Origin: Paludibacteraceae bacterium | Lineage (GTDB): Bacteria > Bacteroidota > Bacteroidia > Bacteroidales > Paludibacteraceae | Assembly (NCBI GenBank): GCA_031553685.1 | Contig: JAVBLE010000033.1 | Span: 1-43,412 of the forward strand | Length of the DNA: 43,412 bases | Direction: 5' to 3' | Shown: positions 5,425-32,148 of the stretch, one piece after another | Position numbering within the stretch: position 1 is the first letter of the stretch | Layout: every line of letters begins with the position of its first letter | The notes under the pieces: generated by a model | Database searches by the model: none | Told to the model about the DNA's origin: nothing | What the model saw: the letters and a program-made list of their open reading frames with translations, nothing else | Made by a program: the position numbers and the translations under genes

Positions 5425-6465
5425 TTATTTTTTATTAAAGTAATATCTAAGCCCTAATTGCAAATTACCCACTCCAATACCTTCCCTTTCGTCTTCTTCC
5501 AATTCAATCGTCGACTTATGTCCATTGGCTTCCATAGTCATTTCATTCAACGCCCCGGCTATAGCCGAATAGTTTAGTCCGATACCCCAATTCTTATCAA
5601 ACCGGTAATCAACACCCAGTGCGAAATAACCTCCAACAGTATTTCCGCTAAATGAGGCATTTATATTATTGTAATCCTTCAGAGTGAATTTTTCTTTAAA
5701 TCTGTTGTAACCTACACCTATCCCAAGATTGAATAACCACTTAGCATTGGCAGAGCTTAAACGAAGCATAAAAGCAGGTCCGACAAACAAAATCCGATCG
5801 TTAGGTTTTGCCAGAATTTCACCTTGATAATTTTGAAGGTCTTTGTCGGTATTGGCATTATACTGCGAATAAACAAGGCGCATACCGATATAATCAGTAA
5901 AATAATAATCGCCAAAAATATCAAAACTCCATCCGTTCATTAAATCTTCAAACACTGCTCTTTGTTGAGGCGAAAGATTCGTGGCTATTTCGGCAGTACG
6001 CCAGCCCCAACCTGCGTTAAAACCTAATGTAGCTACAGGAGGTTTCGCTTTTACGGGAGAGGAACTGATAGATTTTTGCCAATATTGTGTATCAGCAGCC
6101 AATGTAGAATCATTAGCAGTTGCGTTTATGCGCAACACAGTAGCGTCGAATTGATGACACGAACTTTTAAAAGAAGGTCGCAAATGGTTGTTTATATACA
6201 CGGCATTTCCCCCCAATTTGCGTGCTTCTTGTTTTACTAAATTTATCATGGTGGATGAATCGCATTTCATGGTAGAACCGCCATCTTTAGCCGAAACATT
6301 TCCCAATGTAACCCACTTGGAAGGCACTTTGTTACTGTCTTTATAAACAGCAACAAATGCAGTATCGTTTAACGCAGGATATTTCTTTAATACAGATGTA
6401 GTAATCTTTGGATTACATGCACAAAGTAAATAACCCATAGCAAAGAAGAAGATTAGCTTTTTCAT
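5425..6465 (-). CDS. Lipoprotein with C-terminal outer-membrane beta-barrel-like domain (hypothetical)
   Basis: ATG at 6465 gives MKKLIFFFAMGYLLCAC (lipobox Cys). The C-terminal half has alternating hydrophobic beta-strand character and ends ...LGLRYYFNKK. The upstream TTG extension is unlikely. Confidence 0.5.
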   Translation of the reverse strand: MKKLIFFFAMGYLLCACNPKITTSVLKKYPALNDTAFVAVYKDSNKVPSKWVTLGNVSAKDGGSTMKCDSSTMINLVKQEARKLGGNAVYINNHLRPSFKSSCHQFDATVLRINATANDSTLAADTQYWQKSISSSPVKAKPPVATLGFNAGWGWRTAEIATNLSPQQRAVFEDLMNGWSFDIFGDYYFTDYIGMRLVYSQYNANTDKDLQNYQGEILAKPNDRILFVGPAFMLRLSSANAKWLFNLGIGVGYNRFKEKFTLKDYNNINASFSGNTVGGYFALGVDYRFDKNWGIGLNYSAIAGALNEMTMEANGHKSTIELEEDEREGIGVGNLQLGLRYYFNKK

Positions 6466-28102: not shown

Positions 28103-29790
28103 TATTGATAATAAAATGTAAGTATATGTGTAAAGCCAATTACTTCCGAAGCCTTTATTTCTTCTTGTTCTATAGTTCCTTTTTCGCGAAGAATATTAAT
28201 TTTTATAGGCTTGTCATCAATTTTAGTAATAACTGACCAATGGCAATATCCTTGAAGGTGTTCTGCTATTTTACCCATATTGCCCTTGTCTAATGATAGC
28301 CATTCTTTTATTAAAATATCCGCATCTTTGGTTGGATAAGAATTGTGGTGTGTAATAATAACTTGACTTACAAAAAAGTCGTCATCTGTAGTGCGTTTGT
28401 ATTCAACAGATATTTGCCTTTTGTCAGGTGTATTACTACGCTTTTGTATTTCTTCAAAAATTGTTTCCAAAGCCGCTTTAAATTCACCTACATGTGTGTA
28501 GAAATCGGCTTTTGACAATTTCATTGTTTTTATATCAAAAGTGTTTTCAGAAAACACTTTATTGATAAGTGTTTCTAAATTAGGTGATTCAATACGGGTA
28601 GTTCGTCTAAAATCTTTTATGACTTCTGCAAATTGAGTATGTCTTATTGGATGCAATTTATTGCTTTTCGTTTCTTTCCATTCCGCAGATGACCATGCAT
28701 TTGTAATTTCTTTGGCATTGTATTGATTGTTAAAAATAGTCAATTTTGATTTTTGCTCAAATGCAAATTGAGTCAATAAGTCTTTTAAAGTTTTGGGTAT
28801 TTCTAGTTGATCAAAACTTTCGGTACAAACTTTTCTTGCTTGTGCTAAAAATGAATCCATATCAAAATCACCGTTTTCGTCAAAATCGTGTGTTAGGTAT
28901 TTCAATCCATCACGCTGATTGAATAGAGACATAAATTGAGCTACATCTTTAGGATTGCCTTTTTCTCCACGCATAATGGCTTTCTTGAATTGTAGCTCTT
29001 CAATTTCTTTCTCAAGATTGGCTATATCCTGCTTAAATTCGTCTATCTGTGTTTCTAATTTCAATATTTGTTCATCTATCTGTTCATATTTACTTTCATC
29101 TTGTAGCATTTCTTCTTTGATTGGAAGAATTCTGCTAAACCTGCTCCATTCACGAGCATTCTTATAGGCTCCTAAACTTGATTCTGGAACATACAAAGGA
29201 AAGTTATAAAAATGATATGATTTGTCATTTTTACGAAATGTTTCAGAAGATATAATTTGTGGAGTACTTCTTCTATTAATAATATATGCAAGATTCGCAT
29301 TGTTATAAAACAAGTTTTTACCAAGTGATTCTACGCTTTCAGGTATTGTAATAGTTGTCAGAGAAACACAACCCCAAAAAGCACCTTCGCCAATTTTTAT
29401 AATACTATTAGGCATTTCAACAGTTTTTAATCCAGAACACTTATTGAAGGCATATTCTCCAATAGTTACTACACTATTGGGAATTTCAATGGATTCCAAT
29501 CCCGAACAATTCATAAAAGCACCATACTCAATATTATTAACAGTATTAGAGATAGATACAGATGTTACCCCCATACAATCTAAAAATGCTAATTGCCCAA
29601 TATTTAAAACTCCTTGATTTACTATTATTTTTGTAATATTCTTGCCATACCAAGGCACCTTACTACTATTGAAAAAATCTCTCATTTTCCCTTCTCCACT
29701 AATAGTAAGTGTAGTGCCATTGAGTGAAGCAATTACATCACTTGCATTTTCAGTTCCACAATCCCAAGTTTGTATATTTGTATTTTTCAT
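28102..29790 (-). CDS. BspA-type leucine-rich-repeat (LRR_5) protein with central coiled coil and an unassigned roughly 300-aa C-terminal domain
   Basis: ATG at 29790 (MKNTNIQTW). Repeats IEIPNSVVTIGEYAFNKCSGLKTVEMPNSIIKIGEGAFWGCVSL. Coiled coil YEQIDEQILKLETQIDEFKQDIANLEKEIEELQ. The TTG-started extension to 29835 is unlikely. Confidence 0.65.
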   Translation of the reverse strand: MKNTNIQTWDCGTENASDVIASLNGTTLTISGEGKMRDFFNSSKVPWYGKNITKIIVNQGVLNIGQLAFLDCMGVTSVSISNTVNNIEYGAFMNCSGLESIEIPNSVVTIGEYAFNKCSGLKTVEMPNSIIKIGEGAFWGCVSLTTITIPESVESLGKNLFYNNANLAYIINRRSTPQIISSETFRKNDKSYHFYNFPLYVPESSLGAYKNAREWSRFSRILPIKEEMLQDESKYEQIDEQILKLETQIDEFKQDIANLEKEIEELQFKKAIMRGEKGNPKDVAQFMSLFNQRDGLKYLTHDFDENGDFDMDSFLAQARKVCTESFDQLEIPKTLKDLLTQFAFEQKSKLTIFNNQYNAKEITNAWSSAEWKETKSNKLHPIRHTQFAEVIKDFRRTTRIESPNLETLINKVFSENTFDIKTMKLSKADFYTHVGEFKAALETIFEEIQKRSNTPDKRQISVEYKRTTDDDFFVSQVIITHHNSYPTKDADILIKEWLSLDKGNMGKIAEHLQGYCHWSVITKIDDKPIKINILREKGTIEQEEIKASEVIGFTHILTFYYQ

Positions 29791-29816
29791 AAATAAATTG
29801 GTTTTAAAAGTTTTTA

Positions 29817-29867
29817 TTTTTGTTTCACACTGCAAAACTACAAGTTATCTGTGCATTCTTTCTGCAC
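29817..29867. promoter_or_regulatory. 51-bp direct repeat copy 1 (TTTTTGTTTCACACTGCAAAACTACAAGTTATCTGTGCATTCTTTCTGCAC) in the promoter region of the LRR/REC/HEPN operon
   Basis: 47 of 51 nt identical to 30161-30211. It lies 27-77 nt upstream of the operon ATG. Confidence 0.6.
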
Positions 29868-29892
29868 TGTTATGATTTTATGTAGCGAATCT

Positions 29893-30039
29893 TTAATTTT
29901 CATCGTTATCTTCGTCATAATCATCGTCATCATAATCCCGCTCATTCAAGGAATCCAAATATTTGTCTTCCAAATAATCCATGTAGTCTTGTGGATCAGA
30001 AAATCCATCATCCATCATTAAGTCTGAAAATCCGCTCAT
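29893..30039 (-). CDS. 48-aa highly acidic peptide (MSGFSDLMMDDGFSDPQDYMDYLEDKYLDSLNERDYDDDDYDEDNDEN)
   Basis: Translated by hand from the minus strand. It is below the 60-aa cutoff of the ORF track. It sits between the two 51-bp direct repeats, with a nested hairpin (30060-30135) upstream. Confidence 0.35.
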   Translation of the reverse strand: MSGFSDLMMDDGFSDPQDYMDYLEDKYLDSLNERDYDDDDYDEDNDEN

Positions 30040-30160
30040 AGTGTTTGTTTTTAGAGGTTAAATTAAGCCAACCGGAAGGATTAAAATCAAATCCGCTATG
30101 GGAAAGATTTGATTTTACGCGATTGGCTTAATTAAATGTTTTTATAATTCTTGTTACTTG

Positions 30161-30211
30161 TTTTTGTTTGACACTGCAAAACTACAAACTATCTGTGCAC
30201 TCTTTCTGCAC
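30161..30211. promoter_or_regulatory. 51-bp direct repeat copy 2, 53-103 nt upstream of the WYL regulator gene
   Basis: TTTTTGTTTGACACTGCAAAACTACAAACTATCTGTGCACTCTTTCTGCAC. Confidence 0.6.
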
Positions 30212-30263
30212 AAATGTAAGAAATATTTTGTTCCTTTGTATTGGACTGAAAAATAAATAAATT

Positions 30264-31283
30264 ATGGCAACCAATAAAAATGCACAAGCTCGTTACAGGA
30301 TACTTGATAATTGTTTTCGTAATAATGGGCGAAGATATTTTATCGAAGACTTAATTTCGGAATGTAATAAAAAATTGGCGGAAATTGACCCCGATTCTAA
30401 AGGTATCAGTCGCCGACAGATTTTTGATGACATTGCGTTTATGGAAAGTTCCGAAGGTTGGGAAATTGATTTATTAAGAGAAAAAGATGGGAAAAGGGTG
30501 TATTATTGTTATGCTGATACTTCTTTTTCTATCAACAATATGCCATTGACAGAATCGGATATTAACCGATTACAAACCGCACTGCAAACCTTTTCACAAT
30601 TCAAAGGGATGCCTCAATTTGAATGGATGTATGAGCTTTTGCCCAAACTGAAACGGGGAAGTTCTGATGTGTATTCTCCCGAGATTATGGAATTTGAGAC
30701 AAATCAGGATCTAAAAGGTATTGAACATATCGGTACGCTTTATGATGCCATCCTTTATAAAAAAACATTGAGAGTTGATTATCTGCAATCATTTAAAGAT
30801 AAATTGCAACTAATCATTCATCCATACTATTTGAAACAATACAATACCCGGTGGTTTTTGTTCGGTTGTAATTCTGAAAATGGGAAATATGATTGGAATC
30901 TTCCATTGGACAGAATCATTGATATAAAAGAAATTCATAAACCATATATTCCTAATACGGTAATTGATTGGAATGAATATTTTGATGATATAATAGGAGT
31001 AACAAAACCGGAAAGTTCCGGAATAGAAGAAATCACACTCCATTTTTATGGAAAAACAGGACACTATATTGAGTCAAAGCCAATTCATCCTTACCAAAGG
31101 CACAAATGGTTAAGCTCAGAAATACTTGAGGTTAACTTGGAGTTAATTATTAATTACGAACTAGAACGGCTTATTCTATCGTATGCCGATAGTGTAAAAG
31201 TGATTCAACCTCAGTCTTTAGTTGAACAGATAAAAGAACGCTTATCTAAAGGTGTTTATCAATATGATTCACCTATCTATTAA
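30264..31283 (+). CDS. wHTH-WYL-WCX transcriptional regulator (BrxR/CapW/PafBC-like)
   Basis: WYL domain signature IIHPYYLKQYNTRWFLFGCNSENGKYDWNLPLDRIIDI, preceded by an N-terminal HTH region (YRILDNCFRNNGRRYFIEDLI). It is divergent from the LRR/REC/HEPN operon. Confidence 0.78.
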   Translation: MATNKNAQARYRILDNCFRNNGRRYFIEDLISECNKKLAEIDPDSKGISRRQIFDDIAFMESSEGWEIDLLREKDGKRVYYCYADTSFSINNMPLTESDINRLQTALQTFSQFKGMPQFEWMYELLPKLKRGSSDVYSPEIMEFETNQDLKGIEHIGTLYDAILYKKTLRVDYLQSFKDKLQLIIHPYYLKQYNTRWFLFGCNSENGKYDWNLPLDRIIDIKEIHKPYIPNTVIDWNEYFDDIIGVTKPESSGIEEITLHFYGKTGHYIESKPIHPYQRHKWLSSEILEVNLELIINYELERLILSYADSVKVIQPQSLVEQIKERLSKGVYQYDSPIY

Positions 31284-31501: not shown

Positions 31502-32148
31502 ATGAATAAAAAAAATGCTGGGTTTGTGGTAGTTCCTCTGTCATCAAATGGGGAACTCGTTGTGGAAAACAACGGTTTAAATGTAAAGAATGCGATGCTC
31601 TGACAACATGGACAAACAAAGGAGTTTCATCATCTAATCGTTTTATATGGTTTCGCCGTTGGATTGTAGGGAAACAAACTTTTCCCGAATTAGTTTCTCA
31701 AAGCGGTTATAGAGTACAGATGTGTCAATTCCATCAAATAAAGATTATTCAGCGTTATTTAACAAAGAAGCCTGATTTACAGGCAGGCAAAGAGTTGTTA
31801 GAACTTGTCAAGTTATTGACTCAAACGGATAAAGAAAGTTTTCTTCTCAGCTTTGCTTGCTGGCATGAGAAATGGGATGAATTTTTGCGAGAACGCTCAA
31901 AGGACAGGCTAACTGGAAAGACTCATTATATTCATAAAAGATTGCGAAGTGCCTATTTGAGTTTAAAACATAATATGCCTTATTTGTGGACTTGGTCTGA
32001 TTATATTCAGATAGGAATACCCAATACCAATAATGTTTTGGAAGGGAAGTTTGCCGATTTAAAAACCAAATTGAGGAATCATAACGGACTATCCAAAAGA
32101 ACTCGTGAGGTCTTTATTGATCACTACTTTAAACAAACATTCCGTTAA
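31502..32148 (+). mobile_element. IS1595/IS1016-like transposase gene with a frameshift in an A8 run (probable pseudogene or slippage site)
   Basis: ATG at 31502 (MNKK) is in frame 2. Immediately after the A8 run (31508-31515), frame 1 encodes the zinc ribbon CWVCGSSSVIKWGTRCGKQRFKCKECD, continuing into the 31720..32148 ORF (...NVLEGKFADLKTKLRNHNGLSKRTREVF...). One extra A would fuse the frames. Confidence 0.6.

Follow-up and report, generated by a model that had tools for sequence, protein, structure and literature searches.

Predicted tandem co-oriented promoter modules, probably controlled by a WYL regulator, on either side of a small acidic gene next to a predicted anti-phage operon in a Paludibacteraceae bacterium

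WYL regulators are emerging as a common switch of many bacterial defence islands, and nearly all work on them has been done in Proteobacteria and Actinobacteria. Among the closest described systems, DriD of Caulobacter crescentus and PafBC of Actinobacteria are activators that are themselves activated by single-stranded DNA (ssDNA). DriD recognizes sites of the form CGxC-N7-GxCG with an A/T-rich centre, placed over the -35 element with constant spacing to the -10 element; the promoter of driD itself contains one of these sites (PMC10853764, PMC13004042). BrxR operators have arms of 10-11 bp and a 5-bp spacer and are located downstream of the -10 element; in pEFER, two such operator boxes (R-BOX1 and R-BOX2) are found in one island (PMC9122601). 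ssDNA was reported as the ligand of CapW, BrxR and DriD (PMC11662680, PMC13622015, PMC10853764). Here we describe a locus in a 43,412-nt stretch from a Paludibacteraceae bacterium (contig JAVBLE010000033.1, hereafter the window, whose first letter is position 1 of all coordinates given), in which the gene of a WYL regulator and a predicted anti-phage (conflict) operon are divergently oriented and separated by a small gene for an acidic protein, with one copy of a direct repeat on each side of that gene. In our view it is likely that the repeats represent a single kind of promoter unit, controlled by the regulator and present twice in tandem and in the same orientation, with one copy serving the acidic gene and the other the operon. 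As a duplicated regulatory module, the repeat belongs to a general type known before; the acidic protein and the rigid promoter grammar are the parts that deserve attention.

The direct repeat spans 54 nt with 49/54 identical positions (91%), which is slightly more than the 51 bp noticed in an initial annotation of the window; the 47/51 matches counted there within the 51-mer are exact, and so are the distances of 27 nt to the ATG of the operon and 53 nt to that of the WYL gene. Local alignment of the two intergenic stretches gave a score of 95, against a mean of 22.8 for shuffled sequences (sd 3.4, max 35), and GTGCA-N7-TGCAC occurs at only 2 sites in the window, both in the repeat, with 0.06 expected. 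Both the repeat and its palindrome are therefore far beyond chance. The palindrome, at first described as partial, is present in both copies and extends in fact over 19 bp, TGTGCA-N7-TGCACA. On the minus strand, the order of elements is the same in the two copies: the predicted operator, a -7 box 11 nt after the 15-nt operator core (TGCA-N7-TGCA), and the start region. The box TAGTTTTG, in the left half of the repeat, is a perfect match on the minus strand to TAnnTTTG, the -7 promoter consensus of Bacteroidota (PMC7366714), and faces the minus-strand genes. Since both copies carry a minus-strand -7 box, they probably form tandem co-oriented promoters; the earlier view of repeats shared by two divergent promoters holds only for the palindrome of copy 2, which the WYL promoter has in common with it. 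Transcription would start near 30170 for the acidic gene and near 29826 for the operon. A sigma-70 promoter scan is uninformative for Bacteroidota, and the "terminators" that it matched are merely the 5-bp stems of the palindromes. The features of the locus are collected in Table 1.

Table 1. Position of the observed and predicted features at the WYL locus (coordinates of the window)
Feature	Position	Strand	Remarks
Third operon gene, 557 aa	25744..27417	-	iREC, receiver-like domain and C-terminal region; domain search
Second operon gene (p236), 236 aa	27392..28102	-	Without known domain; kept beside HisKin and iREC in related loci
First operon gene, 562 aa	28102..29790	-	LRR_5, coiled coil and HisKin-conflict; domain search
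Repeat copy 1	29814..29867	-	Predicted promoter/operator module of the LRR-HisKin operon; matches the single module of L102 by position and 5' untranslated region
Predicted -7 box of the operon promoter	29833..29840	-	TAGTTTTG; 11 nt from operator core
Predicted operator O1	29850..29868	.	TGTGCA-TTCTTTC-TGCACT; arms 6/6 and 5/6
Gene for 48-aa acidic protein (20 D/E)	29893..30039	-	Conserved N-terminal motif MSGFSDLMMDDGFSDPQDYMDYLED, then disordered acidic tail
Nested hairpin, 17-nt outer arms	30058..30136	-	In predicted 5' untranslated region of the acidic gene; lineage-specific insertion of ~80 nt
Repeat copy 2	30158..30211	-	Predicted promoter/operator module of the small acidic gene; palindrome in common with the divergent WYL promoter
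Predicted -7 box of the acidic-gene promoter	30177..30184	-	TAGTTTTG; consensus TAnnTTTG; 11 nt from operator core
Predicted operator O2	30194..30212	.	TGTGCA-CTCTTTC-TGCACA; perfect 6-N7-6 palindrome
Predicted -7 box of the WYL gene's own promoter	30231..30238	+	TTCCTTTG; outside the repeat; 20 nt from operator core
wHTH-WYL-WCX transcription regulator, 339 aa	30264..31283	+	Pfam, PDB profile, AF2/Foldseek

The same arrangement was found in relatives, for which 68 loci encoding WYL orthologues were fetched from GTDB genomes (fetched loci carry labels of the form L001). Many orthologues from several Bacteroidota species have kept the palindrome 65-70 nt ahead of the WYL start codon, and a tCTTTG-type box that fits the -7 consensus follows about 20 nt further on; the spacing from operator to WYL box is 19-21 nt in 10 of the 25 loci in which an operator was found, the closest orthologues included. 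From this position upstream of WYL orthologues, the palindrome is very probably the operator of the WYL regulator, as the initial annotation had proposed. On the other side, a TAccTTTG or TAacTTTG box is found in single copy at the matching place in relatives such as L006-L008, L102 and L105. The composite TGCA-N7-YGCR + 9-13 nt + TWnnTTTG occurs 85 times in the 969 kb of all fetched loci and 0 times after shuffling, and the distance between core and box is exactly 11 nt in 48 distinct contexts, all remaining distances between 0 and 40 nt contributing 13 counts together. With 4,461 homologues at E<=1e-20, this WYL clade of the Bacteroidota is large, and an operator/promoter grammar defined at the sequence level could serve to predict its regulon genome-wide.

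The number of modules differs among relatives. In L102, L103, L105 and L106, the WYL gene and the same LRR-HisKin/p244/iREC operon are separated by an intergenic gap of ~127 nt with one module and no acidic gene, and it is the single module of this layout, seen in L102 and likewise in L105, to which copy 1 corresponds. In L081, L099, L100, L101, L086 and L093, the order is WYL gene (80-82% identical), module, acidic open reading frame (ORF) and an AAA_15/21 ATPase operon; in three of these, L081, L099 and L100, the acidic ORF is followed by a second module before the operon begins, with 51/71 identity to the first (score 56, shuffle max 32). A degenerate second palindrome (e.g. ATGCA-N7-CGCAG) with a TAACTTTG box can be recognized by eye in L090, L092 and L093, where alignments of this second site to the first module were no better than those of shuffles, and by eye a half-site remains at the second position in L101. 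The two modules of the window agree at 49/56 positions, derived states such as TAGTTTTG among them, and no orthologue matches them at more than 43/56. Being closest to each other, they point to a duplication or gene conversion in this lineage, on an architecture that is present elsewhere.

It could be argued that the repeats only bound a small cassette, mobile or duplicated, that carries the acidic gene, being its ends or sites of recombination with no regulatory role of their own. The suggestion of a duplicated cassette had already been made, and part of it stands: the two modules are mutual closest relatives, the acidic gene is optional among close relatives, some of which have a single module and lack it, the hairpin insertion inside the cassette has terminal inverted repeats, and an IS256 remnant lies nearby. 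Yet the palindrome, the 11-nt spacer, the -7 box and the start region each occur once, and at the equivalent place, in relatives without duplication, no recombinase accompanies the cassette, and the second module of the other loci is too diverged from the first for a recombination product. We therefore regard cassette ends without regulatory function as improbable.

Under the regulated-promoter reading that we prefer, a WYL dimer would bind the 19-bp palindrome of each module, which occupies the position of the -33 element. Copy 2, proximal to the WYL gene, would drive the gene of the 48-aa acidic protein, and its palindrome would also serve the divergent WYL promoter and so allow autoregulation, and the distal copy 1 would drive the LRR-HisKin/p236/iREC conflict operon. 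Dimers on both palindromes would place the operon and the genes of the regulator and the acidic protein under one signal; acidic gene and operon would thus both probably answer to the neighbouring regulator. By precedent, this signal may be the ssDNA made during phage attack or DNA damage. The two copies would have arisen or been homogenised in this lineage, and recombination between them would be expected to delete the acidic-gene cassette.

Several observations weigh against this reading. The fixed spacing could partly reflect the common descent of the modules, not a stereochemical need, and the promoter boxes at the locus are consensus matches only. In L085 and L086, no second operator could be recognized in the stretch between the acidic gene and the operon. 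In L085, L090 and L092, IS200-like sequence is found in place of the WYL gene, yet module, acidic gene and operon have been retained, so that cis control from an adjoining regulator gene is not obligatory. Finally, the regulator was modelled by AF2 with moderate quality (pLDDT 69), and, as far as activation is concerned, BrxR and CapW, the characterised WYL regulators that adjoin defence systems, are repressors.

As to the replacements themselves, the WYL gene and its promoter are lost up to the edge of the operator (L085:1-130, L090:1-260, L092:213-830) and the incoming sequence contains strong hairpins (ccgtaggttacgcttcgcttcacctacgg); in L092 it includes a gene for an IS200-like Y1 transposase. 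A different layout accompanies more distant WYL homologues (37-45% identity) in L029, L031, L032, L038, L040 (~7000, in locus coordinates) and L048 (~3390), in which the module lies directly downstream of the WYL gene and points onward, so that the regulated genes are co-directional with it and not divergent.

The regulator carries the Pfam domains PF13280 (WYL, E 8e-8) and PF25583 (WCX, E 1e-7) and is matched by the WYL models of PADLOC. A phmmer search of the protein against PDB sequences returned nothing, and a profile of its orthologues gave weak matches to PafBC, DriD, BrxR and CapW. With the AF2 model, Foldseek produced full-length alignments to the same four proteins at E-values from 4e-13 to 1e-5, being ~4e-13 for PafBC and DriD, 9e-8 for CapW and 3e-7 for BrxR. 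The domain order, the fold of the N-terminal winged helix-turn-helix (wHTH) and the palindrome in its own promoter region place it among the wHTH-WYL-WCX regulators. With DriD and PafBC it has in common the wHTH, the helical linker, the WYL and WCX domains and a similar length (339 aa vs 327 aa). Its predicted operator is also built like that of DriD, with a 4-N7-4 core, an A/T-rich centre, a position equivalent to -35, a fixed distance to the box equivalent to -10 and a site in the regulator's own promoter in both cases. However, sequence identity is only 13-17%, the host belongs to the Bacteroidota and uses promoters of the sigma-ABfr type (-7 box), and the predicted regulon consists of a conflict operon and a small acidic protein, not of DNA-repair genes.

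BrxR and CapW, on the other hand, resemble the regulator of the window in adjoining a defence operon, in being paired as one regulator type with unrelated defence systems and in having a palindromic operator in their own promoter. They differ in the operator itself, which in the window has arms of 6 bp and a spacer of 7 bp and lies upstream of the -7 box, at the -33 position, and the fold matches to them are weaker than that to DriD. Moreover, the papers on BrxR, CapW and DriD cited here do not mention a conserved small acidic partner gene. Because of the DriD-like operator geometry, and because Foldseek ranks DriD and PafBC above CapW and BrxR, we lean, by analogy, to ssDNA-dependent activation as in DriD, which we would give an even chance; repression relieved by ssDNA, as in CapW and BrxR, is a possible but less probable arrangement by the same kind of analogy, and a mixture of activation and repression seems unlikely. 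The DriD-like geometry raises the possibility that some defence-linked WYL proteins are activators and not repressors.

The nested hairpin that had been noticed upstream of the small ORF is present. In an alignment of the 5' untranslated region (5'UTR) of the acidic gene from the window and six relatives, operator O2 is almost unvarying, and the UTR, of ~55 nt and otherwise conserved, is interrupted in the window by the ~80 nt of the hairpin, which none of the six relatives has. Thus, the hairpin is not a conserved upstream element, as had been assumed, and is found in this lineage only. It could be imagined as the functional core of the locus, acting as a riboregulator or structured non-coding RNA with its promoter in copy 2, to which the acidic ORF would be secondary. 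It does lie within the predicted 5'UTR, and folding favours the minus-strand RNA (-27.5 kcal/mol, z -5.35) by a wide margin over the plus-strand RNA (z -2.2). Yet this strand preference hinges on one or two G-U pairs, and besides its absence from relatives with the same UTR, the hairpin is single-copy in the window and, beyond L001 and L002, which are copies of the same sequence, was found in none of the fetched loci or viral contigs. Rfam gave no match in the whole window at the gathering threshold and, at permissive E-values over 29780-30270, generic miRNA-like hairpins only; neither tRNA nor tmRNA was found in the window. A riboregulator is accordingly very improbable, and we regard the hairpin as a lineage-specific insertion, which possibly resembles a miniature inverted-repeat transposable element.

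The small ORF on the minus strand (translation MSGFSDLMMDDGFSDPQDYMDYLEDKYLDSLNERDYDDDDYDEDNDEN) exists as initially annotated, except that a recount gives 20 Asp/Glu instead of 19, and it is a real, conserved gene. It is annotated as a gene in public assemblies. The reading frame is kept in 26 distinct DNA sequences, in which the entropy at the three codon positions is 0.59, 0.43 and 1.22 bits; for sequences that yielded a dS value, dN/dS relative to the window is 0.07-0.41, in keeping with purifying selection. Between the window and L071, for example, the first 26 codons differ by ~13 synonymous and 4 non-synonymous changes. Codon adaptation of the acidic frame is 0.78, with 0.71-0.75 for reference genes. 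An alternative in which the acidic ORF is an artefact and the real gene is its plus-strand mirror ORF (29872-30021), encoding a 49-aa hydrophobic peptide like a type I toxin on a transcript that would start from copy 1 and end at the hairpin and a T-run, can draw on a frame that is open and very hydrophobic, on the TGTTTTTAT that follows the hairpin on the plus strand and on the direct orientation of the repeat, but it is extremely improbable and largely refuted by the conservation just described and by codon usage (0.56 in the mirror frame), both of which favour the opposite strand, as well as by gene callers, which list the acidic ORF only and have no record of the mirror, and by the missing hairpin in all relatives. 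The hydrophobicity of the mirror ORF stems from GAT, GAC and GAA, which read backwards give ATC, GTC and TTC.

A word-indexed search with the acidic protein gave one homologue (protein label P0002), nearly identical over the first 25 residues. A profile search of 1.84 billion representatives gave 37 matches at E<=1e-3, from which 29 homologues with the N-terminal motif were retrieved, their common N-terminus being MSGF[TS]DMMIDDGFSDPQEYMDYLE. AF2 predicts helices at residues 3-10 and 16-37, which form a two-helix hairpin (3-37), with pLDDT 83-93 over the first 30 residues; the tail is of low confidence and disordered. No relevant family match was found in Pfam, PADLOC, PHROGs or NCBIfam. The protein belongs to a rare family that has MSGFTDMMIDDGFSDPQEYMDYLE as its defining motif and is under purifying selection. 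No relatives were found in a scan of viral contigs, and neither tblastn with the acidic protein nor a search by motif regex found any in the 68 GTDB WYL loci; the gene is confined to a narrow, mostly metagenomic set. Conserved, acidic and unmatched in the libraries, and repeatedly placed under this operator, the protein is a concrete candidate for an accessory factor that has so far been missing from WYL signalling.

What the acidic gene goes with is the WYL module and not any one effector: either the ATPase operon or the LRR-HisKin operon follows it; in L085, for instance, it precedes an LRR-HisKin gene 49% identical to that of the window. Most short members have the module upstream; those without an adjoining WYL gene also carry the operator and box, ~70 nt upstream of their start (L074-L077, L080, L096 and L107, and nearly so L089), and family members in mid-operon or fused to large C-terminal domains are without the module. 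Genes in the surroundings of family members encode a DprA-like protein (L071), UvrD or PIF1 helicases (L073, L079, L109), DarT (L111), a reverse transcriptase (L109) and a 110-aa SSB lacking the tail (L077, L107), and in L098 RT-Cas1, Cas6 and a putative Cas2, the last recognized by its N-terminal sequence. The C-terminus is also peculiar, as 21 of 39 short members end in F, W or Y after the acidic run (e.g. DDDIF, DEF, GLPF); the protein of the window ends in ...DEDNDEN, with neither the terminal aromatic residue nor the Pro-Phe of an SSB-type tip.

Acidic C-terminal tails are known from ssDNA-binding proteins such as E. coli SSB (...DDDIPF) and T7 gp2.5. The tails of the acidic family are likewise disordered and rich in D, E and Y, and some members lie near genes for SSB, DarT, DprA-like proteins, helicases or reverse transcriptases. 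In contrast to SSB and gp2.5, the protein of the window ends in DEN, with no terminal aromatic residue and no OB fold, and what is conserved in it, unlike in SSB or DNA mimics, is an N-terminal helical hairpin that has no known counterpart. Compared with folded DNA mimics of the Ocr/ArdA type, to which it has no homology, it is very small, with a two-helix hairpin and a disordered tail in the AF2 model; it may still be a DNA mimic or a regulator partner, roles that the initial annotation had mentioned for acidic mini-proteins. Taken as a working hypothesis only, the contexts and tails of the family suggest a connection with ssDNA or SSB biology. Perhaps the ssDNA-sensing WYL regulons of Bacteroidota have these small proteins, with their helical hairpin MSGFTDMMIDDGFSDPQEYMDYLE and a D/E/Y tail whose last residue is often aromatic, as an output of their own, and the proteins act as mimics of ssDNA or of the SSB tail, tuning or locking the induced state of defence operons, an idea that we consider rather unlikely as a whole. 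Such a mimic might bind the WYL domain and so feed back on the regulator, or it might bind proteins that interact with SSB or process ssDNA.

Some members of the family and their neighbours are worth recording. In L033, the slot held by the acidic gene in the window is filled by a gene for a DUF3127 protein (5569-5934, minus strand), which ends in ...GLPDDLPF, an SSB-like tip, and lies between two GGTGCA-N7-TGCAC palindromes. The members at L071:2743-2973 and L073:6001-6318 continue past the acidic tail into a conserved Cys-rich C-terminal extension (..CSQCSNYGCPKHPCN and ..CNHCSNYGCNAHPCN), a layout reminiscent of a leader-core peptide, and both are the last genes of operons with DprA-like or UvrD-like genes. 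At L098:168-5478, a 265-aa protein with the N-terminal motif of the family is encoded between an RT-Cas1 fusion with the putative Cas2 and the Cas6-like gene; its upstream region has another palindrome, GACA-N7-TGTC, before a TATATTTG box. In L107:6001-6319 and L077:73-1240, an acidic gene with operator module lies ~0.7 kb from the gene of the 110-aa SSB without acidic tail; the acidic gene of L107 is apparently split by a frameshift into ORFs of 48 and 45 aa, and that of L076 is intact with 92 aa. Genes for relaxase, NikA/MobC, DUF3408 and HTH_17 proteins adjoin the WYL/acidic-gene/ATPase loci at L099:6256-7983 and L101:6017-9876, and these loci therefore lie on mobilisable elements.

The LRR-HisKin/p236/iREC operon itself is a predicted anti-phage operon, as judged from its domains: PF22561 (HisKin-conflict) was matched at E 2e-55 and PF22563 (iREC) at E 1e-15, which are the domains of the HisKin-conflict/iREC systems, and the order of these genes is the same in L005, L007, L019, L022, L102 and L105. 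It differs from its relatives in the N-terminal sensor, which is an LRR in the window and in relatives a TPR, or a reverse transcriptase with a retron-like non-coding RNA. No experimental work was found in the literature on HisKin-conflict/iREC systems. One regulator type thus seems to be shuffled among unrelated defence operons, namely LRR-, TPR- or RT-HisKin and AAA-ATPase systems. The flanks of the region are housekeeping genes (Na/H exchanger, fmt, RelA/SpoT), and just past the WYL gene a 142-aa ORF (31720-32148, plus strand) corresponds to the C-terminal half of a transposase of the IS256 family (NCBIfam NF048019, E 9e-61), a remnant that marks the island edge; housekeeping flanks and truncated transposase together indicate a small chromosomal island. 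Identity to the window is 100% in two Logan contigs, L001 and L002.

In many loci of WYL orthologues (L005, L010, L013, L022, L027 and L033, also L003 and L104), HisKin is fused to or preceded by a reverse transcriptase (RT). In a paper on retron classification (PMC7736814), neither WYL nor kinase nor receiver is among the words of the main text, which also makes no mention of a retron-like system that combines RT, HisKin and iREC with a WYL regulator. Inverted repeats, e.g. AAGCCTGCTGC/GCAGCAGGCTT and GAATGTCCGTTCC/GGAACGGACATTC, enclose the intergenic region of 250-380 nt that separates the RT gene from the WYL gene; they differ in sequence between loci and keep their complementarity, and thereby resemble the a1/a2 stem of the retron type.

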